Origin: a virus | Lineage: Duplodnaviria > Caudoviricetes | Reading direction: 5' to 3' (one strand) | DNA: 64,000 bases | IMG/VR virus record: IMGVR_UViG_2887198475_000002 | Part shown: positions 15,424-64,000 of the stretch, one piece after another | Layout: each line of letters opens with the position of its first letter | Numbering within the stretch: the stretch's first letter is position 1 | Notes under the pieces: generated by a model | Told to the model about the DNA's origin: nothing | Databases searched by the model: none | The model's input: the letters and a program-made list of their open reading frames with translations, nothing else | Made by a program: the position numbers and the translations under genes

Positions 15424-17163
15424 TTAAGTCAGGGTCGCCGTGCCGCTGTAGGGCGTCACGGAGATACCAACGGTGGTGAAGTTATTCGGAATAACGGGCG
15501 AGCATTGGAAGGTGATGCCCGTCACGTCACCGTTGATGCTTGCAGCAAGGTTTTTGTAAGCTGGGCTTTTCGTGTCGCCAACAAGGATGCCAGGGCCGGC
15601 CGGCTCCTCTTTGGCGAGATAGTCCAGCACCGTCCGCGTGATGGACAGCCCGCGCGACATGAGAGACGGGCTGGCCTTCTGACCGCGCAGCACATCGAGG
15701 GCTTTGCGCACGCTGCGGGCAACATAATCGACCGCAGAGCCGCAGGAGTTCTCGACGCGGTTGTAATTGTCGTCGGACAGCCACGTCGAGATGTCGCGCA
15801 CGACCTTGAACCCGTCCTCCCCCGCGTTCTCCACGACGCAGATGCCGAACCGGATCAGCTCGTCAGTATCGACGGGGTTGCGCGCCTCGAACTCAAGCCC
15901 GCCGACACGGACCGGCTTGTTGGTCAGGCTCGTGCCCGGGTTTACGCCGGCCGCCATCGCCGCCAAAAGAACAGCGGTCATGTAGCCCGGCAGCACCACC
16001 CGGTTGCCGCGGTTGTCGAAGTCATAGTGCGCCGGCCAGCAGAAAGAGGTCCGGTCGGAGCCGATCGCGGCCGCGAGCGACTTGGCCTCTTCCATATCGG
16101 TCCCGGCCGGGCCGCCAACACGCGCGCGCCGCTCGCGCTGCCCCGCATCGCTCATGAAGATGCAATGCGCATCCACCATCGCGTGAACCGCCGAGTCGGC
16201 GGAGAGCGGGACGATGTGCTGGATGTCCAGCCGCTCGCAGGCGTCGATGGCGGTTGACCAGTCCTCGTTCGTCACGGCCGGATCAGCCGCGCCGGTGAGG
16301 AAGGTCCAGGCGACGTTTGCCGGCGGCGAACCGGCGCCGGTGGCGCGCTCGCCAATCGCAAGGCCGGAGGCCGGGCTGTTCAGCCAGTCCACCACGGCCT
16401 GCAAGTCCCCCTTGACGGTGAACGAGGCGGTTTTCACGTCCTGGGCGGTCACGAAGTCCAGGGCGGACGCCGCGCGAAGCAGCTCGGAGCCGGAAGCAGG
16501 CGTTGCGGAGAAGCCGGCGACGGCGTTGATGCGGTCGCAGACCTCCTGAATGGTCGGGAAGTCCTCGAAGGCGATCGTCGCGCGGACCGCGGCCGTGCCG
16601 GCGTCGGCGCCCGACTTGAGGACAACGTTCGCGCCCGCCACAGTGATGTTCGCCACCGCATCAGCGCCGGTGTAGTGGACGCTGAAGGCGTTCCGCGCGA
16701 GGTTGTCGCCAACGCTGTATTCGTTGCCGGCCTGCACGGTGATCTTCTTGCCGCGCAGGGTGCCGGCCTCGACCTTCGCGCGAATGGTGTTGGCCGGGAT
16801 GCCATAGAGCTTCGAGCGCAGCACGATGGAATCGGCCGCCGAGCCATCCTTGAGGGTCAGGCTGGAACGGGTCGCCTGACCGACGCGGATCAGCGTCAGG
16901 GTGCGCGGCCCGCCCGTGGCAGAGCTGGGGCCGAACGCCTTGCGGGCGGCAACCAGCAATTCGCCACCGCGCACCTTGCGCTTGGCGTCCTCGGGGGACT
17001 GGACCCGGATGGGCACGTTCGGCTGGCCGCCATCGGCGCGGCCGACAATGACCATGTCATTGCCAACCGCGGGGTTCCGCGGCGACATGTCCTCGTCATT
17101 GACCTGGGAGAACGTGCCCGGCGTATAGTGCAGAATGCCGTTGAAAAAGACACTGGAAGCCAC
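15424..17163 (-). CDS. Contractile tail sheath protein
   Basis: 579 aa; YTPGTFS, VGRADGGQPN, TAVLLAAMAAG..SLTNK, C-terminal PVIPNNF. Confidence 0.9.
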   Translation of the reverse strand: MASSVFFNGILHYTPGTFSQVNDEDMSPRNPAVGNDMVIVGRADGGQPNVPIRVQSPEDAKRKVRGGELLVAARKAFGPSSATGGPRTLTLIRVGQATRSSLTLKDGSAADSIVLRSKLYGIPANTIRAKVEAGTLRGKKITVQAGNEYSVGDNLARNAFSVHYTGADAVANITVAGANVVLKSGADAGTAAVRATIAFEDFPTIQEVCDRINAVAGFSATPASGSELLRAASALDFVTAQDVKTASFTVKGDLQAVVDWLNSPASGLAIGERATGAGSPPANVAWTFLTGAADPAVTNEDWSTAIDACERLDIQHIVPLSADSAVHAMVDAHCIFMSDAGQRERRARVGGPAGTDMEEAKSLAAAIGSDRTSFCWPAHYDFDNRGNRVVLPGYMTAVLLAAMAAGVNPGTSLTNKPVRVGGLEFEARNPVDTDELIRFGICVVENAGEDGFKVVRDISTWLSDDNYNRVENSCGSAVDYVARSVRKALDVLRGQKASPSLMSRGLSITRTVLDYLAKEEPAGPGILVGDTKSPAYKNLAASINGDVTGITFQCSPVIPNNFTTVGISVTPYSGTATLT

Positions 17164-38600: not shown

Positions 38601-41600
38601 CGCAGAGCGAGTTCTACACCCCGCCGGCGGTTGCCTCCTCGATGTGGGACATGCTGCGGAATGCCGGCTTCTCCGGCGGGAGCGTGTTGGAGCCGAGCTG
38701 CGGAACCGGCGTCTACCTGCACACCGCCCCCGAGGCCGCCCGGGTTACGGGCGTGGAGATGGACCCGACCAGCGCGCGGATCGCCGGCATCCTGCACGGC
38801 CCGGCCGGGCACGACATCCACAACGCCAGTCTTGAGCGGTTCGCGACCCAGGACGGCCGGCAATTCGACGCGGTGATCGGCAACGTGCCGTTCTGCGGCC
38901 GCGGCAGCCTCCTGAAAGACGACAAGCCGGAGCTGCCGCGCGCTGAGCAGTACTTCGTGGATACCGCGCTCGACAAATGCCGGGACGGGGGCCTTGTGGC
39001 CGTGATCGTCCCGACCGGCATCATGGACGCCCAGGGCACCCGCAGCTTCCGCGAGCGCATCATGGCGAAAGCGGAGTTCCTGGGCGGCCGGCGGCTGCCG
39101 AATACGTGCTTCCAGGCTGCCCATACCGAGGTGACGAGCGACATCCTCGTGTTCCGCAAGCGCCCCCAGGAGATCGCCGGGGCGCTGGGCGCGCTCGATC
39201 AGGACCAGCTCAAGGCCGCAGGCGTATGGGACGCCGAGTTCCTGGCCGGGACCTACTTCCAGGGCCGCGGCGCCCCGAACGTCATGGGCCGCGTGACGAC
39301 GAAGATGGGGCAATTCGGCGAGGAGGCGACCGTCGCCGGCAGCATGGAGGGCGTGCCCGAGGCCCTGTCCACCTGGGCGCCGGAGGAGCCGGTAGCCCCC
39401 TCCCCGTCCGTGCCTGCCATCCTCGAAAGCCTGGGCGACGACGCGGCGGCCCGCCGGCGCGTGACCAACGCGGCGCTGCGCACCCCCTATCAGGTCGCGC
39501 AGCCCGGGGACGTGCGGGTGGTCAACGGCGTCCGCTATGTCCTGCAAGGCCAACCGCCACGATGGAACCGGGCCGAGGAGGAGGTTCCAGAGGCGGTCGA
39601 GGACGCCCGGCACATCGCGGAGCTGCTGGACGACTTGGCCGAGGGCCGGGCGCGCGATCCGAAATTCACCCGGGCGGGGCTGATCGAGGCCCTGGACTCC
39701 TGGGTGGCGGCCCACGGCACGCCAGCCAGCAACAAGCAGCTCCGCGCGTGGCTGGCCGCGCCGTTCATGCCCCGGGGCGAGGACGTGCATCCCGAGGACC
39801 ACGCCCATCAGGTGCAGCAGGCCCAGCGCCACGTCGCTCGCATCTTGGGCGCGGTCAACGCTGACGGCAGCTATTCCGACCTCGTGACCGGGCGCGTGCG
39901 CGAGGCCGAGGCCGCAGACCTTGAGACGGTGGCGACGCGGCTGGCGCTGGAATGGGGCGGGTTCACAGCCGACCAGCTCGCCACCGCGGCCAACGCGCAC
40001 GTCGATACCGTGCTGGATCGGCTGCACGCCTCCTCCGACTTCGCGGTGGAGGCGGACGGCAAGACGTGGACGACGATCGACGGCTACATGACCGGCGACC
40101 TGTGGCCGAAGCTGGATGCAGCCCGGGCCGCCGCAGCGGAGCCGAGCGTCGCGCCCGAGCTGCGCGCGAAGTATCAGCGGCAGGTCGCCGAGCTGGAAAA
40201 GGCCATCGACCCCAAGAGCCTTGAGGACGTGGAAGTCACGCTTTCCTCCGGCTTCGTCCAGCCGGGCGACATCGAGGCGTGGTTCACGGCGCGGAACGAC
40301 GCCTACAAGGAGCGCAATCCTGGCCGGGCCTGGGAGCCGGGCGAATACAGCGTCACCTATGACAGCGGCGCATGGTCGATCCGGAGGGCAGACGACGGCG
40401 GCGCCCCCTTCCGCGGCAACGATGCGGAGCTGGTGGAGCGTTTTCTTAACCGCGATGGCGTGCGCCGGACCGAGACAGAAAAAGTCGAGGCCCTGAACCG
40501 CGAGTTCAAGACGTGGCTGCTGGGCAGCGAACGTCGAGAGGCGATGGAGGACCGATACAACAGGCTGTATCGCGGCTTCCGCGCACGCGAGTTCTCGAAC
40601 GCCCCCATCCACATCGCCGGCATGAACACGGAGGGCTTGAAGGCTTTCCAGTACGGCGGCGTTCGCTGGGCACTGGCAGCGGGCAAGGGCATCGTCGCCG
40701 CAGATGTCGGCCTTGGCAAGACGGTGAGGGGCCTCATGCTGGCGCGCCTCGCCAAGCAGACAGGGCAGGCGAAGCGGCCAACCTTCGTTGTCCCCAAGAG
40801 CGTGGTCGCGAATTGGGTTGCAGAGGCCGAGAAGTGGTTCCCCGGCAGCCGGGTCCTCGTGATCGGCGAGAGCATGGTCAAGGGGCGGGACGGCACGATG
40901 AAGGCCGTGTCCGACGACGAGGCCACCCGGAAGCAAAAGCTCCAATCGCTGACGCAAAACGATTGGGATTTCGTGTTCATCACGCAGCCCGCCTGGAACG
41001 AGCTGGATGTCTCCCCCGAGCTGCGCGACCGCTACGAAAACGACAACTTCTGGACCCAGCGCGCCGACGCGCTCGACCGGGCCAAGAGCGACAAGAAGCG
41101 CGGGAAGATCCGGACCGCGTTCGAGCTGCAGCAGGCCAAGCAGACCTTCACCAAGCGCGAGGGCTCGATCTTCTTCGATGACCTTGGCGTGGACATGCTC
41201 GTCATGGACGAGGCGCACTGCTTCCCGGCGGGGACGCTGGTGGACGGGCGCCCCATCGAGAGCTTCCATGCCGGGGATTTGGTGCGGGCCTTCGACCACG
41301 CCGCCGGTCGCATCGTCCTTTCCAGAGTTGCCAACCTACAGATCCGCGTCCCCCGCGATCTCTATCGGATCGAGATGGACGACGGCACGACGCTGATCTG
41401 CACAGGCAAGCACCCGATCTTCACGCCGCACGGCTACATCTTTGCCGAAGATATCGCTGTCGGTGACGTGGCGTTCAAAAACAAGCGGGGACCGGCGGAT
41501 GGTGAAGAAGAAAGGCGACCCATGGAGGCGGAGCGTTCCTCGCCTGGAAACGGCGACGCTTCCATGCGCGTGGTGCGGCACGCCCTTGAAGCTGACGCCG

Positions 41601-44600
41601 CAGCAGGATTGGAGGCGCCGCGAGGGGCAGCGGAACTTCTTCTGCAACAAGACCCACTCGGCGCATTCCAGGGAAGCCCGGAAGAGGCCGAATCCCTCCG
41701 CCATGGAAGCAGAGATTGCGCAGGCGAAGGCGCGATTGCTGGCCGTGCTGGGAGATGGTTGGGTGGCGGAGCACATGGTCAAGGAGCCGTATCCGGAGAA
41801 CGGCATCCCGTTTTGCTACAAGGTGGACATCGCACACCCCGGGCTGCTGATCGCCATGGACGTGATCGCATTGCACCCATCGTATTCCAAGCAGGGCCGG
41901 GACCACAGGAGGGAGGCGATTTTATGGAGGTGCGGGTGGCGCGTGTTGCGCCTCTCGATAGGGGAGTTGACGAAACGTTTGGAGGAGTGTGCAAGGGCGG
42001 CGTCGTCTACAACATCGAAGTAGAGCGCCATCACAACTACATCGCCGAAGGCATCCTCGTTCATAACAGCTACAAGAATCTGTTCGCCGCACGCCAGCGG
42101 TTCGGCGAAAGCCCGAAGTTCCTGGGCGGATCCGGGCAGAGCAAGCGCGCGCTGGACACCTTCCACAAAACCAGGGCGCTGCGCGACGCGAACGGCGGGA
42201 AGGGCGTGTTCATGCTCACCGCCACGCCCACGAAGAACAGCCCGCTTGAAGTTTACTCCATGCTTTCGCACATCGCGCCCGAGGCATTCGAGCGCATGGG
42301 CATCCGGAACGCCGAGGATTTCCTCGACCGATTCTGCGTGTTCGAGACACGGAAGATTCTCGGTCTCAACGGCGAGTATGACGACGATCTGTGCGTGACA
42401 GGCTTCAAGAACCTGTCCGAGCTGCGCGAGGTAATGCGCCGCTACATCGACCACAAGACCGCCGAAGATGTCGGGCTTGAGCTGCCGGAGCGCGACGATC
42501 AGCAGCACATGGTCGATATGACGCCGGCCCAGGAAGCCGTTTACGAGGAGCTTCGCTCGCTCATTGCCGGCAAGGACGATGCCGCTGGCAAGATCGACGC
42601 CGAAGGTGAGGCGCACATCTTTTCCGTCATGGACAAGATGCAGAAGGCGACGCTCGACCTGTCCCTGCTGGGGCCGGAGCATGCAGGCGAAGCAAGCCCG
42701 AAGATGGAGCTGTGCGCAAAGAACGTTGCCAGGGGCGCAGCAGACGGCGGGCAGGTTGTGTTCTGCGAAGCGATCGACACGCACGAGAAGATCGTGGACA
42801 TGATCGCCAAGCATGGTATCCCGCGCGAGCGCATCGCCATCATCAACGGCAACACCGCCAAGACCGGCGATGCGCGCCAGAAAATCAGCGACGCCTTCAA
42901 CTCCGGCCGCATCGACGTGGTGATCGCCAACAAGACGGCCGAGGAGGGCGTGAACCTCCAAAAGCGCACTGCCGACATCCATCATCTCGATCTGCCGTGG
43001 GAGCCTGCGACCCTACAGCAGCGCAACGGGCGCGGGCTCCGCCAGGGCAACACCAACAAGGCGGTGCGACTGCACACCTATCTGGCCCGCGGCAGCTTCG
43101 ACGGCTATCGCTGGCAGACGATCAGCGCAAAGAAGGATTGGCAAGACCTGCTGTGGAATGGCGGGGACACCGTCGAAAACCTCGTGTTCGAGGGCGGCGG
43201 CACGCGCGAGGAGATGATGATCGCGCTGTCCAAAGATCCAGACGCCACTGCGAAGAAACTGTCGGAGGACAAGGAGGCGCAGCAGGCGCGCACCGAAGCG
43301 GCGGAGCGCGGGAAGGCGACCGATCAGTTCACGCGCTATCAGGAGATGCGCCGCAGCCTTGCGGAGTTGCGCGCCAAGCACCCGCAGGGAGCCGAGCCGA
43401 GCGCGGCAATGCGGCGCCTCGAATACCGGTCCGACGTGCTCGCTGACACGCTGCGGCACTCGAAATGGTTCGCACACAAGGAGCTGCTGGACAGCGTCGA
43501 GCCGGCATACATCGAGCCGAGCACCAACGTCGCATGGACGAAGGGCAGGGGGTTCGAGCTGGCCGGCGGCTCCGGCGGGCCGATCCACTACAGCTCCTCG
43601 CCGACGCGCTGGGTGGTCGAGGGCGTGGACCTGGGCAATGATGCCGGGCCGCAGATCATTGCCCGACAATGGGGGGCCACCCCAGGCGATGACAGCAAGA
43701 CCGTCCGCATGGACGCGGCGAAGTTCAAGGCGGGCGTGACGCCGATCGCCTACAGCCAGGAGGAAGAGGAAAAGCACATCGCGGCGGAGAAGGCCGCCCG
43801 CGAGGCGAAGGCCAAGAAGGAGGCCGAGGAGAAAGGCGTTGCCCACCTGGGCGAAGTCGCGGCCATGCCGCCCGTCGTGGTGCAGGCGCGCGCCGCCGAG
43901 CTGCAACGCCAGCTCAAGGCATCCGCGGCCGCCTACAAGGATTACGGCTGGGATGGCCCGCTGCCGCTGGTGCGGCCGGATGGCAGCGTGTTCGCCGCCG
44001 AGAGCTACGATGCGCGCAAGCGCCTCGCCGACAACGACTTCCTCCTGCCCACCCCGGAGAACCGGGAGAAGGCCATCGCCGCCTATGCCGACCTCGCATC
44101 GCGCCGCCGCATCCGAAACAACTTCGTGTCCGGCCGCCGCGGCAAGACCACCCATGTCGGCGTGAAGGCCAGCTATCCGGACAGCAACCGGGAATACTCC
44201 GGGTTCGAGGCGAACCCGTGGGAGAAGATCATCCGGCAGCTCTACGGGGACGGCGCGGTGCAGGAGGCGCGCGCCGCCGCCGACAAGCGGATCAGGGAGC
44301 GCATCGACGCGGCGCCCGACTTCCGCTCCGCGGTTGAGGCCGCACAGCCGGCGGTGCAGCTCCCGCAGTATGGCGGCTCGCTGGCCGCCGGGGCGTGGCC
44401 GGCCGATGTGGTGGCGAAGCTGTGGGACAAGGCCGCGGCCGAAGGGCTGCTGCACACCCCGCTGCGGCAGGCGGCGCCGAGCGATTACCAGGGCAGCATC
44501 AACCACCACACGTTCAGCATGCCCGTCCCGGGCAGCTCCTACGACCGCACCAACCCCGGCATGAAGGTGGGCGACTTCCTGAACGCCGTGGGGGCGGGCA

Positions 44601-58415: not shown

Positions 58416-59649
58416 GTCATGAACTCGGGCCTGAAGGCCCGAGCTTGTAGGTGCCCAAGATGAGGCTACGCGGCCCTACGTTCGGCAGCATGACGGCTGC
58501 CCCGCCGCGAGATGTTCACGGCGGCTGTGGTGTCGGCGGGGCCAGCGTGCCCGCATTGGATGCACCGGAAGGTGTCGCGATCTGGGCGGTTGCGCTTGTC
58601 TATCATCCCGCAGCACGGGCACTCACGGCTCGTGTTGCGCGGATCTACGCAGACAAGTGGCACGCCTTCCATCGCGGCCTTGTAGGTCAGGAAGGCCCGG
58701 AGTTGGTGGAAGCTCCAACTGTGGTGCGCGCGGCGCTGGGACCGTCTGACCGTTGTCCGCGCGCGGATGCCCTTGAGGTCTTCCAGGGCAATGCCGCGTC
58801 CGGTGTCTTTGGCCTTCCGCACGATGGCTTTGCTGATCCGGTGGTTCACGTCGCGGGCAAACCGCGACTCCTTGGCCCGGCGCCGCTTCAGCAGGCGCTT
58901 GGCCGACTTGGTTCCCTTCTTCTGAAGCTTGCGGCGGAGGCGTGCATGTCGGTTGCGCAGATTGGCGATGTGCGCGCCGCTGAACGTCTCCCCATCGTTG
59001 TCGGCGGCGATGTTCTTCCGGCCGAGATCGACGCCGAGGTATTCGGTCGGGTCGCCCGGCGGCACATCGCCAACGTCGATGGTCACATAGAGGAAGAACT
59101 GCCCGTCGCGGTAGATCAGGTCTGCCTGCCCGCGCACTCGATCAAGCCGGGCGTGCTGGTAGGCGCCGGCCACCCACGGCATGATCTCGCGCCCATCCAC
59201 CGTCAGGACCGAAACCCGGTCCGATCCTTTCCACGACAGGATGCGCTCGTCATAGACAATGGCGCCGTGCGGCCGGAACGACGGTTGGATGGATTTGTCT
59301 CGCTTGTAGACCTCGACCACCTTGGCGATGGCGCGAACGGTCATCTGCGCGGACAGACCAAAGTCAGCGCGGATACCGTGGTAGGCGATCTTCTGAAGCT
59401 CAACCTTGTTGGCACATTTGTTGCTGAAGGCAATGGCAGCAAGCGTGTCGCAGGCAGCATTGAACTGCTCCATCGTCTTCAACAGAGACGCCGCCTGTTC
59501 GGCGGTAGGCAACAGCTTCACCTGCATCGTCAGCTTCATAAAAATCTATATAGGAATCGCTCAATGCAAAGTCAACACCGCATAGCCGACTTCGCCGGCT
59601 GCGCTATCCCTCCGCCGGCTAAAGCCGGCGGCATCTCGCGCAAGCCATG
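58416..59649 (-). mobile_element. TnpB-only IS200/IS605-family element
   Basis: Subterminal hairpins CCGCCGGC-TAAA-GCCGGCGG (~59613-59632) and CTCGGGC-CTGAAG-GCCCGAG (~58424-58443); no tnpA; boundaries inferred. Confidence 0.75.
58466..59539 (-). CDS. tnpB: TnpB RNA-guided nuclease
   Basis: GVDLG, IALEDL, TSRECPCCG, CIQCG, ADTTAAVNI; RuvC D-E-D intact. Confidence 0.93.
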   Translation of the reverse strand: MKLTMQVKLLPTAEQAASLLKTMEQFNAACDTLAAIAFSNKCANKVELQKIAYHGIRADFGLSAQMTVRAIAKVVEVYKRDKSIQPSFRPHGAIVYDERILSWKGSDRVSVLTVDGREIMPWVAGAYQHARLDRVRGQADLIYRDGQFFLYVTIDVGDVPPGDPTEYLGVDLGRKNIAADNDGETFSGAHIANLRNRHARLRRKLQKKGTKSAKRLLKRRRAKESRFARDVNHRISKAIVRKAKDTGRGIALEDLKGIRARTTVRRSQRRAHHSWSFHQLRAFLTYKAAMEGVPLVCVDPRNTSRECPCCGMIDKRNRPDRDTFRCIQCGHAGPADTTAAVNISRRGSRHAAERRAA

Positions 59650-59694: not shown

Positions 59695-62600
59695 ATGACC
59701 GCACGAGCCCCAATTGTCCTTTTTTTGAAGGCGTTACAGCCCGGCGAACGCTGGATAACGGTCCACAGCCACGGGCCGGACGCGCCCGGCCAGCCCGTGC
59801 TGATCCGGCAGGAGAGCGACGGCTCCGCAAGGGTGGTTGGGGGCGCCGGCGGGGCGTTGAACCATCTGCGCCTGACCGCTGTGCGCGACGAGGCCGAATA
59901 CAAGCAGGAGGCGGCAAAGCGCGCGGAGCTGCACCGCGACGCCAGGAAGCGGCAGCAGGAGCGCGATCGGCGAGACGGCCTCGCTGACAGCAAGAAGCGG
60001 GCGCGGGAGGTATTGCAGGCCAGCCTGGGCGACCACCGGGCGAAATTCGTGGAGACGGTCGCGCAGGCCATGGGCTGGGACACCCGGTTCCCGGCCGAGA
60101 AATACCAGAACCTCAGCGACGCGGCCCTGCGGCGGGCGCAGCAGCGGCACGCCAACGGCCTGATGAAGCGGGCGCGCGAAGCTGTGGACATGCAGCAGCA
60201 GCGCCTTGTCGCCGACGCCGAGGCGCGGGGCGCTGCGGGCCTGGGCGAAGTCAAGCTCACCAGCTCGAAGCCGGACGAGATCACGGCGGAGGACTTGGCG
60301 CCGGTGGCGCCGCCGAACGGCCGGGGCCTGGGCTTCGACCCGGAATACGGCAAGCGCGCCGCCGCGGCGGGCCTGACCGCGGAGGAAAAGCGGCAGGAGG
60401 CCGAGGCCACCAAGCCGCAGGATCCGGAGCGGCAGGCGGCCGCGGCAGAGCGCAAGGTGACGGCGCAGAAGATCGCCGGCGAGCTGGCGACGGTCCGCGA
60501 TCCGCTTCCCCAGGTGGACCCGAAGCGCGTCGTGGACGATCGCGCCGCCCTCGCCATGGTCAAGGCGCGGAAGGCGTTGCAGCAGGCCGAGCGCGCCGCC
60601 CGGGACGCGAACAAGCAGATCGACGTCGCCCGCACCACGGTCGAGCCGCGGGCCTTCGTCATCGAGACGCGGCAGGCGAGCGATGACGAGGCCCTGAAAG
60701 ACCTCGAAAACGACCTGAAGACGGTCCGGACCCGGGCTTTCGTGTCGGAAGTCGGGAAGATGATCGGGGAGCGGGAGAGCGTCGGCGGGCACATTGCCGC
60801 CGGCGCCTTCAACAGCATCAACGCCCTGGCGCTCGCCGCCGGCGGTTCGGCCCTCCTCGATCGGTCAACGGTGGATGTGCTGGGCACGGACGGCGCCGCG
60901 CGCGTCCTGGCCCGGCGGCTGCAAGCCGACCTCTCCCCGCAGGAGATGGACGAGCTGCGGGGGGCAATGGAGCGGTACCACATCGACCACTACATGCGGG
61001 TGCAGGCGACCGATGGGGCGCTGCGGGACGCGCGGACGTGGCACGAGATGGCCCAGGAGATCGAGCTGGGCGCCGCGAGCACCGGGCATGACCTGATGGC
61101 CGCCCAGGAGCTGAACGCCCGCCGGCGGGAATACGTCGGGAAAGCCCAGCAGGTCTTGGGCGTGGCCCTGGGCGAGATGGAGGCGAACGCCGCGCTGGTG
61201 GCGGCCCTGGGCCGGAAGAAGCCGGAGGCCAGCCTGACGGTCAGCATGGGCAAGCTGGCGCCCGAGCAGGCGATCGCCCAGGCGCGCGCGATCGGGTTGC
61301 AGCGGGGCGAGTACCGGATCGAGCGCGTGGGGGCCTCGACCATGCTGACGGTCGAGGCGGCCGGCATGGATCGGCTGGCGAAGCCGGTCAGCCGGTCCGA
61401 CCTCGCGCGCACCCGGGGCGCGCTGGACATCATCGAGGGGCGCAGGGACGAGGATGGATGGTTGCCGGAGGGCGTGGCGAAGCGCCTGGACCTGGGGCGT
61501 GACGACATGAAGCCGGGCGTGGCCCCCAGCCTCGCGCAGCCATTCCCCGACAAGCCGGCGGACGTGCGGCAAGCGGTGCGCGACTACATCGGCGCCAGGG
61601 CGGCGGACGGGGACACGCCGGCCGACATCCTCGCCGGCCTGCTGAACGAGGAGACGATCCAGCGCGCCGGCGACCGTGACGCCTATTTCCGCGCGGTCGA
61701 GGAGGTGGCCCCGTCGAAGGATGCCGAGGGCAAGCAGATCCGGGCCGAGGCCCACGCGGACCGCTTCGCGGAGCTGGCGGACGACTACACCTCGCGGGGG
61801 CTGGGCGGGAAGCTGCCGCCCCTGCACCGGCAGAAGTTCGCCGAGGACGATGCCGCGGCCGATGCGCTGCACCGGGCGCTGGCGGCGCACCCCGAAGGCG
61901 TGGCGGCATTCAAGCCGGTGGGGGACCTGACGCCGCAGGAGCAGGGCATGCTCCGCGGCGTGTTCGCTGCCGAGTTCGCCAAGTCGGCCGGGCCGGAGGC
62001 GCAGGCCAAGCAGCAGCGGCTTGCCGAGCTGGGCACCAACGAGCCGGAGCGCGAGGTTGAGGACATGTTCGGGCGGGGCGAGAACCCGCTCTGGCGCGAA
62101 TGGAAGGCCGAGCGCGACGGGCTCGCCGAGGAGCTGAACCGCGACACCATGACCTGGGGGAAATACCTCGCGGTCATGGGCAGTCCGGCGGCCGGCTATG
62201 CCGCCATGCAGGACGTGGTCCGGTCGAAGGTGGTCGGGCGCTTCGCCGAGGAGCTGAATCGGCTCCGCCCGGCCGAGGCCGTGAAGGTGGGCAAGACCAC
62301 CATCCGCGGGGACATCGACCACCTGGGCGCCCTCAATCCGGAGGAGCGCGAGCGCCGGGAAACCGAGCGGAAGAAGCTCGCCGGCGCCATGCAGGCGCGC
62401 GTCGGGGGCAAATTCGCGTCGGACGACGTGAAGGGGAAGATCCTGCGGGAGCGCGAGGCCCAGGCAGCCATCGCGCAGAGCCAGATGGGCCTGTTCGGGT
62501 TCGAGGAGCCGGCGCCGAAGGCGGAGGAGGGCGAGGCCGGGCCGCTCCTGCCGGAGCTGCGCCAGGGCGAGCGGCTGACGATCGGGCATCAGGCCGAGCA

Positions 62601-64000
62601 GCAGTTGCAGCGCATGATGGGGCGGATCGGCGCGAACTTCCGCCCCGGCACCGCGCCGGTGAACCTGTGGCGGCCCGACATGAGCGGGAAATTCGTCGGC
62701 CGGCAGCGGGCGGTGAAGCTGATCGAGCACTCGAAAAGAGTGGCTCTTGGACTAGGGGTTGGGTCAGGCAAGACGAGTATCGCGCTATCGGCTTTTACGC
62801 ACCTCAAGGCGAAGGGGAAGGCCAAGCGGGGCCTGTTCATCGTCCCCTCGATCGCCCAGGGGCAGTTCCACGGCGAGGCCCTGAACGTGCTTGAGCCGGG
62901 GCGCTACCGCTGGCACGCGGAGCCGGGTGCGAGCCGGGAGGAGCGCATCGCAGCCTACAAAGACCCGAGCATCGACTTCAACGTGGTCACGCACGCCGCC
63001 TTCAGGGATGACATGCTGCACCTCGCGGCCGCGCGCGAAGGCAGCACGCCGGACATCGTTGCCGAGAAGCTGGACGGCATGACGCCGGAGGGGCGTGCCG
63101 CCTACATGCGCGACCTGCTGGCCGCCGAGGGCATCGACCACGACTATCTGGCCGTGGACGAGGGGCACCAGCTCTTGAACCGCGAGGGCAAAGAAAACTC
63201 GCGGATGGCAAACGTCATAGACGGTATCTCAGACTCTCGAAGCTATTACGTAAATCTCACCGCGGATAGCGTGAAGAACGACGCTTCCGAGGCGTTCGAC
63301 GTGCTCGCGAAGATGGACCGCGCTCGCTACTCAGATCGGGATGCCTTCATGCGGCGCTACGGTGCGAACACGCCGGCGGCGCGCGAGGAGCTTCGCCGGG
63401 AGCTGGCCCGGCACCTCTACGCCGGGCACATCAAGCCGGAGGTGCAGGTCCGGAAGCAGGACGTGAAGGTGGCGCTGGGCGAGCGCGACCGGGCGCAGCT
63501 CGCCGCGATCGACAAGGCCGCGGCGGCGGCGCGCATCGCCCGCATGAAGGGCGAGGTGGATCTGCCCGCGCTCCGGACCCTGGCGCCCGGGGCGTTCGAG
63601 GACGTGCCCGAGGCCCAGCACGAGGACGTGGCGCGGGAGCTGAATCAGTCCATCGGCATCCTGCGCGCCACTGCGGCCCGGCACGCGATCGACGGAAGCG
63701 CCAAGGTGGACAAGCTGTCCGAGCTGGCGCGGGAGCGGGCAGGGAAGCCGGGCGTGGTGTTCGCTCACAGCCTCGCCCGCGTGAAGGAGATCGCGGAACG
63801 CCTGACACGCGAGGGGCACCGGGTTGTCACCCTGACCGGCACGGACACCAGCAAGGAGAAGGACGCCAAGAAGCAGGCTTTCCAGAGCGGCAAGGCGGAC
63901 ATCATCATCTGTTCGGACGCCGGCGCGGTCGGGGCGAATCTGCAACGCGGGCAATGGCTGGCGCAGTTCGACACGCCGCAGACAGCGATGGTCCATAACC
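59695..64000 (+). CDS. Second large SNF2-like protein, runs off window end
   Basis: Absent from ORF track; MTARAPIVLFLKALQPGERWITVH..GQPVLI; same-frame LGVGSGKT (~62750), VDEGH (~63154), TAD..KN, SDAGAVGANLQ. Confidence 0.85.
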   Translation, partial: MTARAPIVLFLKALQPGERWITVHSHGPDAPGQPVLIRQESDGSARVVGGAGGALNHLRLTAVRDEAEYKQEAAKRAELHRDARKRQQERDRRDGLADSKKRAREVLQASLGDHRAKFVETVAQAMGWDTRFPAEKYQNLSDAALRRAQQRHANGLMKRAREAVDMQQQRLVADAEARGAAGLGEVKLTSSKPDEITAEDLAPVAPPNGRGLGFDPEYGKRAAAAGLTAEEKRQEAEATKPQDPERQAAAAERKVTAQKIAGELATVRDPLPQVDPKRVVDDRAALAMVKARKALQQAERAARDANKQIDVARTTVEPRAFVIETRQASDDEALKDLENDLKTVRTRAFVSEVGKMIGERESVGGHIAAGAFNSINALALAAGGSALLDRSTVDVLGTDGAARVLARRLQADLSPQEMDELRGAMERYHIDHYMRVQATDGALRDARTWHEMAQEIELGAASTGHDLMAAQELNARRREYVGKAQQVLGVALGEMEANAALVAALGRKKPEASLTVSMGKLAPEQAIAQARAIGLQRGEYRIERVGASTMLTVEAAGMDRLAKPVSRSDLARTRGALDIIEGRRDEDGWLPEGVAKRLDLGRDDMKPGVAPSLAQPFPDKPADVRQAVRDYIGARAADGDTPADILAGLLNEETIQRAGDRDAYFRAVEEVAPSKDAEGKQIRAEAHADRFAELADDYTSRGLGGKLPPLHRQKFAEDDAAADALHRALAAHPEGVAAFKPVGDLTPQEQGMLRGVFAAEFAKSAGPEAQAKQQRLAELGTNEPEREVEDMFGRGENPLWREWKAERDGLAEELNRDTMTWGKYLAVMGSPAAGYAAMQDVVRSKVVGRFAEELNRLRPAEAVKVGKTTIRGDIDHLGALNPEERERRETERKKLAGAMQARVGGKFASDDVKGKILREREAQAAIAQSQMGLFGFEEPAPKAEEGEAGPLLPELRQGERLTIGHQAEQQLQRMMGRIGANFRPGTAPVNLWRPDMSGKFVGRQRAVKLIEHSKRVALGLGVGSGKTSIALSAFTHLKAKGKAKRGLFIVPSIAQGQFHGEALNVLEPGRYRWHAEPGASREERIAAYKDPSIDFNVVTHAAFRDDMLHLAAAREGSTPDIVAEKLDGMTPEGRAAYMRDLLAAEGIDHDYLAVDEGHQLLNREGKENSRMANVIDGISDSRSYYVNLTADSVKNDASEAFDVLAKMDRARYSDRDAFMRRYGANTPAAREELRRELARHLYAGHIKPEVQVRKQDVKVALGERDRAQLAAIDKAAAAARIARMKGEVDLPALRTLAPGAFEDVPEAQHEDVARELNQSIGILRATAARHAIDGSAKVDKLSELARERAGKPGVVFAHSLARVKEIAERLTREGHRVVTLTGTDTSKEKDAKKQAFQSGKADIIICSDAGAVGANLQRGQWLAQFDTPQTAMVHN

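Follow-up and report, generated by a model that had tools for sequence, protein, structure and literature searches.

The window analysed here is a 64,000-nucleotide stretch of DNA from a virus of the Caudoviricetes (Duplodnaviria; IMG/VR record IMGVR_UViG_2887198475_000002), in which a very large gene with N6-methylase and SNF2-type helicase domains carries an intein. We consider it very probable that this element is a class-1 intein inserted between DEAH and S of the helicase, that its DNA also holds a nested gene for a Vsr-like nuclease in the +1 frame, and that the nuclease of the window copy has decayed. A preliminary description of this DNA had proposed a dual-coding intein with a nested +1 nuclease gene. 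Comparison of homologous loci strongly supports this proposal: the layout recurs in 82 of 82 loci, stops are avoided in the frame of the host gene (host frame), and the nuclease frame is under purifying selection.

The intein and its nested reading frame

In the host frame, the intein reads CFPAGTLVDG...GILVHN and is followed by SYKN. It was assigned to class 1 from the block A Cys, the TxxH motif, the junction of HN with S, two halves predicted to be of the HINT type, and its in-frame insertion relative to intein-less homologues. Pfam Intein_splicing matched it at 8.9e-10 (39 bits, above the cut-off of 35.8), and TIGR01443 (intein_Cterm) matched residues 263-283 at 1.5e-7, also above its cut-off. 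Among 52 aligned inteins, C1 (41219-41221), H65, and N283 were invariant and T62 was at least 90% conserved. The splicing blocks are thus intact, as had been stated from the letters of the sequence. AlphaFold predicted two β-rich halves, with a predicted local distance difference test score (pLDDT) of 94-98 for residues 1-90 and of 85-97 for residues 231-283, and the linker between them (residues ~95-230) had a pLDDT of 42-58 and no secondary structure. Residues 94-235 (142 residues) are 18% hydrophobic and 77% disorder-promoting in the host frame. These predictions bear out the earlier remark that the in-frame central insert has no recognisable fold.

The insertion site was compared with host homologues. 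The nearest intein-less homologue (P0004) has flanks 84% identical to those of the window and reads MDEGH-AYKN at the site. When the 120 best homologues were sorted by pattern, 95 were intein-less, 9 carried an intein at the site, and 16 matched neither pattern. None of the 95 intein-less proteins has S, C, or T directly after DExH; they have A, G, H, Q, or N there, whereas the +1 residue of the 9 intein-bearing ones is S (5) or C (4). Since this residue differs between occupied and empty alleles, the spliced host protein would be unlike the empty allele at that position. The host protein is encoded by one unbroken open reading frame (ORF) of 3097 aa and not by a split gene, and Pfam detected N6_Mtase (1e-11), SNF2-rel_dom (5.4e-20), and Helicase_C (6.6e-11) in it. 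The preliminary description had called the host a virion protein, but these domains indicate a methylase/SNF2 helicase of a prophage.

Contigs from RNA libraries of the same organism covered 41272-42400 with no differences from the window and no joint, which indicates that nothing is removed at the RNA level and agrees with an intein and not with an intron. No RNA contig covered 40900-41256. In RNA run X4, a 4.8-kb contig with a depth of 91.5 starts at ~41776 and runs downstream, and the upstream contigs have a depth of 3.6. Contigs cannot show transcript ends, and this step hints, at best weakly, that a transcript boundary lies within the nested ORF.

The nested ORF (coordinates in Table 1) reads CAWC...FCNKTH, followed by a Vsr/DUF559-like C-terminal half. 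C23, C26, and G27 were invariant in alignments A1 and A2. C49 and C53 are nearly invariant in the nuclease family, and the window copy has H at position 53. The G+C content at third codon positions (GC3) is 0.85 in the host gene; across the nested ORF (41499-42023) the host frame falls to 0.51, whereas the +1 frame has 0.81. Over this interval the host frame has no stops against 3.08 expected from +1-synonymous shuffles (P = 0.013), and the +1 frame has none against 2.35 expected from host-synonymous shuffles (P = 0.044) or 6.8 under a composition null (P = 0.001); the third frame contains 7. The two frames had been noted to stay open together, and the shuffles indicate that they do so beyond chance.

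The nested ORF could be aligned over its full length with 55 family members, and from this alignment AlphaFold produced a model with a pLDDT of 89.9 and a predicted template-modelling (TM) score of 0.65. Three structures headed the Foldseek results: PvuRts1I (4oq2, E = 2.9e-3), the catalytic domain of I-Bth0305I (3r3p; probability 1.00, TM score 0.65-0.69, root-mean-square deviation ~3 Å for 97 aligned columns), and 3hrl, a DUF559 protein (TM score 0.67). AbaSI and Vsr (1cw0) came next. The best fold matches are those to I-Bth0305I and 3hrl. A profile of the family matched the same two structures by sequence (3hrl at 3.3e-11 and 3r3p at 2.2e-3). DUF559 was detected at E<=1e-3 in 55 of the 56 aligned members; the sole exception was the window ORF, which scored 17.0 bits against a gathering score of 20.6. 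PHROGs and NCBIfam gave no meaningful match to it. Thus, of the check by hidden Markov models (HMMs) and structure prediction proposed for both frames, the confident folds stood, and the nested ORF's own DUF559 match fell below the cut-off. The assignment of a 174-aa ORF with CxxC..FC..H and a DUF559/Vsr-like domain is supported by GC3, homology, and the AlphaFold and Foldseek results.

The family of Walker-B inteins with nested nucleases

The first family members were found by tblastn in helicase genes of Pseudomonas phage MR14 and Corynebacterium phage phi673, where the nuclease is likewise nested in the +1 frame within an intein, and two contigs of metagenome-assembled genomes had the same layout. 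IMG/VR was searched with five nested nucleases, which gave 167 relatives, and the best 80 were taken. A genome collection added two loci, which are the same places as loci L006 and L007; the total was 82 loci, 74 of them distinct. The host frame was open across the whole nuclease match in all 82 (ORFs of 535-2573 aa), and the other sense frame in none. An intein C-terminus (...VYNLEVE..H.Y.ANG.LVHN followed by C or S) was located at the 3′ end of the nuclease in 82 of 82 loci, and an intein N-terminus (C-F-P...) directly followed DE or DExH in 80; the remaining two loci start at contig ends. Within the nuclease match of the 74 distinct loci, the host frame contained no stops although 547.6 were expected, and the third frame contained 930.

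The preliminary description had suggested a comparison of nonsynonymous to synonymous substitution rates (dN/dS) for each frame across homologous inteins. In 75 pairs that were 55-97% identical, dN/dS was 0.08-0.42 in the nuclease frame (50 pairs in which dS was unsaturated) and 0.74-2.33 in the host frame (all 75 pairs). From this contrast and the avoidance of stops, selection acts on the nuclease as a protein, whereas in the host frame it maintains nothing but the open reading, except at the 3′ end.

At this 3′ end, the host frame encodes a conserved strand (RVd.vEv) beneath the nuclease motif GWtVLRF. GW and the last intein codon are 134 nt apart in 41 of 73 loci, including the window with its GW codon at 41934, and 137 nt apart in 12 and 158 nt apart in 11 others. 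The nuclease stop falls 10-67 nt before the intein end in most loci (46 nt in 14 loci as well as in the window). For the stretch between GW and this stop, the ratio of nonsynonymous to synonymous differences (pN/pS) in 13 pairs was 0.41 in the nuclease frame and 0.59 in the host frame, as against 0.33 and 1.35 upstream of the overlap, and synonymous change in the nuclease frame was 0.27 in the overlap and 0.61 upstream. Judged from these rates, the last ~100 nt of the nested ORF is constrained in both frames across the family. The nested ORF had been placed wholly between blocks B and F, which needs correction: the C-terminal splicing domain shares coding sequence with the last ~34 codons of the ORF, which terminates within block F (VYNIEVE).

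The use of the +1 frame is strict. It was considered whether +1 is the sole frame in which stops can be avoided by synonymous changes, and this was rejected: with a gene nested in +2, host-frame stops are also nearly all avoidable, except for Met followed by a codon starting with A, and the third-frame stops are merely 1.7 times the expected host-frame figure (930 vs 547.6). Common descent together with the functional overlap is a better explanation.

The nested ORF starts just after the N-terminal splicing domain, and the starts of the window copy and of locus L103 lie within two codons of each other. An ATG precedes the first CxxC in 67 of the 74 loci, a few codons ahead and often right after a stop. 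A strong AGGAG/GGAGG motif was found in 14 of the 74 loci as compared with 4.3% of control draws, and a weaker 4-mer in 16 as compared with 13.7%. Because of the placement of the start after the N-terminal domain and the enrichment of Shine-Dalgarno motifs in the family, we infer that the nested nuclease is translated separately from its own start.

The family was also searched from the intein side, with an alignment of the N-terminal splicing domain and the pattern CFPAGTLV, and 80 loci were kept. Of these, 65 are at Walker-B-type sites: 60 contain a +1 nuclease ORF that reaches 180 aa or more, 4 have +1 remnants in inteins of 136-196 aa, and 1 is a 135-aa mini-intein without a nuclease. In none of the 65 is the nuclease encoded in the host frame or the host frame interrupted. 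Among the 15 loci at other sites, 12 had no such nuclease, 2 had an antisense DUF559 ORF, and 1 had a sense +2 HNH ORF. The last, L165 (2055-2750; intein from 1801), encodes an HNH-like HH...N...H and several zinc ribbons on the same strand and is another off-frame nuclease arrangement. The antisense DUF559/Vsr-like ORFs of L166 and L178 (inteins from 1801) matched the family HMM at 2e-14 and 2e-12, and their layout agrees with the antisense architecture of a 2025 preprint (10.1101/2025.01.02.630785).

The exteins were of several kinds. Pfam confirmed an SF2 helicase (L045), a SNF2/HARP ATPase (L026), and a DnaX-like clamp loader (L051). L036 (2816-5122) has the same type of intein and nuclease at MDEATR followed by C; its extein has only a weak Terminase_6N match, which suggests that the element also occupies Walker-B sites of terminases (the large subunit in L036). 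By extein pattern, the 74 inteins comprised 37 in helicases with DE before and CH[HR] after the insertion point, 17 in SNF2-like and 5 in clamp-loader-like proteins, and 15 unclassified, several of which look clamp-loader-like.

Three allele states were found at the same site in helicases of Vibrio phages that are 76-87% identical overall to the intein-bearing one. Phage 1.088.O (L182) has a full 356-aa intein with a nested nuclease, PS17B.1 (L183) has a precise empty site (QDE directly followed by CHHV), and K458 (L184) has a mini-intein of ~150 aa. These allele states appear to be signs of ongoing mobility of the family. A different route of nuclease decay is seen in L069/L134 (the same IMG/VR contig), 1 of the 74 members, which has an in-frame stop inside the nuclease match while its host frame is open.

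The nuclease of L045 matched 40 records of cultured phages: 37 of Vibrio phages (including CP-T1), two of phi673, and one of MR14. A separate nested coding sequence was annotated in none of the 40, in which only a helicase, P-loop, or hypothetical coding sequence lies under the match. A profile search of 1.84 billion cluster representatives returned 990 at E<=1e-30 and 4003 at E<=1e-10. The ten top cluster hits were all singletons, and 8 of them came from contigs of 1.1-3.2 kb in which the host ORF is cut.

Probable decay of the window copy and alternative explanations

From these results, a scheme for the element can be proposed. The host frame would provide two HINT half-domains joined by a disordered linker of ~140 residues, and self-splicing of the intein is expected to leave the ATPase motif restored. 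The DNA of the linker would be the gene of a zinc-ribbon and Vsr-like homing nuclease that is read from ATG 41499 and ends in block F, so that its last ~100 nt would encode structured parts of both proteins. Intact members would spread by homing: their nuclease would cleave the motif-II site of alleles that lack the intein, and the ensuing repair would transfer intein and nested gene as one unit. Since selection on the host gene keeps its frame free of stops and purges frameshifts, the nested ORF would be sheltered. The window copy would be at a late stage of the homing cycle and, with its splicing residues intact, would persist as a passively inherited intein.

The probable decay of the window nuclease is seen at the presumed catalytic motif. 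The window has GAC GTG ATC, a missing codon, and GCA TTG CAC where the family has GAA GTG GAC GGC ... CAC; Glu is changed to Asp, Asp to Ile, and the Gly codon is deleted, although at least 90% of family members keep E, D, and G at these positions. The window ORF therefore lacks the complete ExDGxxH...D set, retaining the His and the last Asp; the putative catalytic role of the E, D, H, and D positions is taken from Dassa et al. 2009 (PMC2677866) and from the family name. An ungapped register, in which ExDG reads M-D-V-I as in the preliminary description, was rejected because the DNA alignment favours the gapped D-V-I; Asp-Gly is lost in either. The window nuclease is also ~50 residues shorter than the family, with the nearly invariant RGGNG included in the loss, and it is changed at K138, F152 (to L), and N154 (to I). 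The caution in the preliminary description that the nuclease may be degenerate is thus borne out by the alignments. The intein itself (283 aa) is shorter than 69 of the 74 family inteins, the median of which is 340 aa.

The nearest relatives in IMG/VR are L103 and L102, whose N-terminal domains are 57% and 63% identical to that of the window. Over 68 core codons, substitutions at the first, second, and third positions of the nuclease frame numbered 26, 29, and 20 against L103 and 20, 26, and 20 against L102, with no excess at the third position. The corresponding dN/dS was 1.27 and 0.95; as a point against decay, this comparison is small and noisy, spans the doubly constrained stretch, and gives ~0.7 even for L102 against L103, the latter of which looks intact. 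The loss of invariant residues and of a conserved segment suggests that the nuclease is probably no longer a working homing enzyme. The window copy is thus probably a decaying nuclease inside a still intact intein, and we read it as being on the path toward the remnants and mini-inteins of its relatives L102, L123, L128, L131, L144, and K458. The open frame can be explained without selection on the nuclease, because host-frame selection purges indels and few changes create stops (68 of 1566 possible single-base changes in the +1 ORF).

The window nuclease might still be capable of homing through a variant active site, in which Asp replaces Glu and the spacing is altered; the element would then be mobile. 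This is unlikely, since the invariant Asp-Gly is absent in every alignment register, RGGNG and ~50 residues of the N-terminal region are deleted, F152 and N154 are replaced, and dN/dS against the nearest relatives is ~1. What would fit an active enzyme is that the ORF is open beyond chance by either null, has a confident fold, keeps D110, H126, D135, GW, and LR, and starts almost where that of L103 does. Also against it, the nested ORF is present as a single copy in its own 7.4-Mb genome, and when 200 further genomes from the same family were searched with the DNA, only matches of 28-84 nt (E>=5e-6) and no near-identical copy were found.

A non-catalytic role of the +1 ORF, e.g. as a DNA-binding or regulatory protein, would account for a frame that is open despite lost catalytic residues and for the retention of the zinc ribbon and the fold. 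However, a dead ORF can stay open for long under the conditions described above, the comparison with L102 and L103 shows no third-position excess, and the relatives form a plain decay series down to mini-inteins, which makes such a role very unlikely.

The window is 66% G+C and contains many long spurious ORFs, but it is hardly credible that the +1 ORF is a chance frame, or an in-frame endonuclease displaced by two compensating sequencing frameshifts, because it is homologous to a nuclease family under purifying selection, the GC3 signal switches frame, the same +1 layout occurs in 82 of 82 independent assemblies and 40 cultured-phage records, the DNA and RNA contigs of the organism are identical to the window, and none of the 82 and 65 loci has an in-frame nuclease. 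Equally far-fetched is the idea that ribosomes translating the intein slip into +1 by programmed frameshifting, make the nuclease, and slip back, rather than initiating at the nuclease ATG, which the lack of a strong Shine-Dalgarno motif and of a promoter upstream of ATG 41499 might favour, since the complete avoidance of host-frame stops would be pointless if ribosomes left that frame, and the nuclease has its own ATG before the first CxxC, often after a stop and with enriched Shine-Dalgarno motifs, as well as its own stop before the intein end.

Several observations weigh against the reading of the element as an intein with a nested and, in the window, decayed nuclease gene. Translation of the +1 ORF, splicing, and cleavage are deduced from sequence and structure models. 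Neither Shine-Dalgarno motif precedes the ATG in 37 of the 74 loci, 7 of the 74 lack the ATG, the GGGGA before ATG 41499 is a poor Shine-Dalgarno motif, and a scan of 41100-42200 for promoters and terminators gave no sites. As for the nuclease assignment, the Foldseek E-values of the nested ORF are 2.9e-3 to 7e-2, all above 1e-3, and its own Pfam matches (MTES_1575 at 7.1e-4 and DUF559 at 5.6e-3) are under the curated cut-offs. With the 174-aa ORF as the query, a word-indexed search of 5.8 billion proteins found none at E<=0.01, and phmmer found no match among PDB sequences. The retention of D110, H126, D135, and GW in an open and confidently folded frame makes residual or altered activity of the window nuclease possible. 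Finally, the family loci are mostly from one collection (IMG/VR) and are the best 80 of 167, so that more distant members could be arranged differently.

The region around the host gene is prophage-like, as marked by a tail sheath gene, and a chemotaxis receptor gene and a TnpB gene lie downstream of it. The latter, a TnpB/IS605 OrfB-like gene (58466-59539, minus strand), matched Cas12f1-like_TNB at 1.8e-20 and OrfB_IS605 at 2.8e-8. It adjoins a second very large ORF of at least 1434 aa (59695-63999, plus strand), which has Helicase_C at its end and leaves the window. The features of the element and its setting are collected in Table 1.

Table 1. Positions of the intein, the nested gene, and related features in the window
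Feature	Position	Strand	Basis or remark
Host gene: N6-methylase and SNF2-type helicase, 3097 aa	35666..44959	+	ORF call and Pfam
N-extein codons D-E-A-H (helicase motif II / Walker B)	41207..41218	+	Immediately 5′ of the intein
Class-1 intein, 283 aa, host frame	41219..42067	+	Translation, Pfam, TIGR01443
N-terminal splicing (HINT) domain: block A (C1), block B T62-G-K-H65 at 41402-41413	41219..41497	+	pLDDT 94-98, N-domain alignment
Weak Shine-Dalgarno-like motif GGGGA ('GGGA' class), 7 nt upstream of ATG 41499	41487..41491	+	Putative function
Host-frame linker, shadow translation of the nuclease gene, predicted disordered	41498..41908	+	AlphaFold
Nested ORF, 174 aa: zinc ribbon and Vsr-like (DUF559/EDxHD-type) nuclease homologue	41499 (ATG)..42023 (TAG)	+ (+1 frame)	GC3, fold, family alignment
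Zinc-ribbon-like CxxC...FCxxxH, nested-ORF residues 23-53	41565..41657	+	Alignments
Degenerate catalytic motif M-D-V-I-A-L-H; family (I)-E-V-D-G-x-S-H	41856..41876	+	DNA alignment with L103/L102
C-terminal splicing domain with blocks F/G (VVYNIEVERHHNYIAEGILVHN, 42002-42067)	41909..42067	+	pLDDT 85-97, TIGR01443
Doubly structured overlap: nuclease residues ~141-174 (GWRVLRL..., strand and helices) / intein C-domain strands (MEVRVARVAPLD ... VVYNIEV)	~41921..42023	+	Both AlphaFold models
+1 extein Ser codon, splicing nucleophile	42068..42070	+	Sequence and homologue comparison
Tail sheath gene	15424-17163	-	Marks the prophage-like region

Relation to known systems and significance

Gosselin, Arsenault & Gogarten (bioRxiv 10.1101/2025.01.02.630785) described contiguous inteins of actinobacteriophages whose nucleases are LAGLIDADG or Vsr-like on the antisense strand or endonuclease VII-like in 'frame 3' of the sense strand, hosted by genes for DNA polymerase, minor capsid protein, terminase, and thymidylate synthase. 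The present intein resembles theirs in that it is contiguous, its nuclease is off the intein frame, and no fold can be recognised in its host-frame insert; their nucleases likewise include a Vsr-like type, with an HHpred link to 3R3P. It thus belongs among the non-canonical inteins with off-frame nucleases but differs in subtype: their Vsr-like nucleases are antisense and their sole same-strand case is endonuclease VII-like, whereas the Vsr-like nuclease of the window is in the sense +1 frame. The present inteins also stand apart in lying at Walker-B/motif-II sites and in a conserved stretch of ~100-135 nt that the nuclease gene shares with the C-terminal splicing domain. According to the same preprint, Vsr-like nucleases are otherwise reported only with split inteins, and the arrangement is proposed to originate from the invasion of an intein by a free-standing nuclease gene.

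Such split inteins were described by Dassa et al. 2009 as 'fractured genes', in which a free-standing Vsr-like nuclease gene lies between the intein halves. The two systems share a Vsr-like nuclease with three conserved motifs, its location at the endonuclease position of the intein, and phage genes of DNA metabolism as hosts, and in 15 of their loci the 3′ end of the nuclease gene overlaps the C-terminal intein part by 6-69 bp. However, their loci consist of two ORFs with a split, trans-splicing intein, whereas here the host frame is open (no stops in 74 loci) and the intein is contiguous. The EDxHD family was named by Taylor et al. 2011 (PMC3239194) after I-Bth0305I (PDB 3R3P), with which the window protein shares the fold of the catalytic domain, as given by Foldseek and the family profile, and the proposed role as a homing nuclease. 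I-Bth0305I resides in a group I intron of recA and not in an intein, and the window protein lacks Asp-Gly. Finally, Arsenault et al. 2025 (PMC11855218) reported an out-of-frame HNH nuclease in a methylase gene. In that case too, a homing nuclease is nested on the same strand and the stop-free host-frame reading forms a loop, but there is no intein or splicing domain, and the nuclease is HNH rather than Vsr-like.

Searches of the open full-text literature, as distinct from subscription journals and supplementary files, gave no account of contiguous Walker-B inteins that carry a Vsr-like nuclease in the sense +1 frame; sense-strand Vsr-like cases might be listed in supplementary tables of the 2025 preprint. 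Inteins with off-frame nucleases have thus been in print since 2025, whereas the sense +1 Vsr-like form, the strict frame, the doubly constrained overlap, and the breadth of the family appear new.

On the whole, we lean toward the view that the window holds a worn member of an undescribed intein lineage of single origin at Walker-B/motif-II sites. In this lineage, the Vsr-like nuclease would always be encoded on the same strand in the +1 frame with a fixed, dual-constrained stretch of ~100-135 nt, and the element would jump among SF2 helicases, SNF2 ATPases, clamp loaders, and terminases via the DE motif, still cycling and unseen by gene callers. If this is true, no natural class of same-strand dual-coding intein/nuclease elements would be larger. 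With at least 167 viral contigs, 40 cultured phages, and, at E<=1e-30, 990 protein clusters, the family offers a large and testable natural set of same-strand overlapping genes, in which one frame is under protein selection, the other is only kept open, and a short stretch is under both. It also reveals a blind spot of annotation, namely nucleases hidden within 'helicase' coding sequences of public phage genomes.

The contiguous form bridges mini-inteins and the 'fractured gene'/split-intein layout, and as such an intermediate it supports the idea that inteins gain nucleases by the invasion of free-standing genes. The common Walker-B target suggests how one element may move between unrelated ATPase genes, and the family as a whole implies that selection on a host gene can protect a nested selfish gene from decay by frameshifts.

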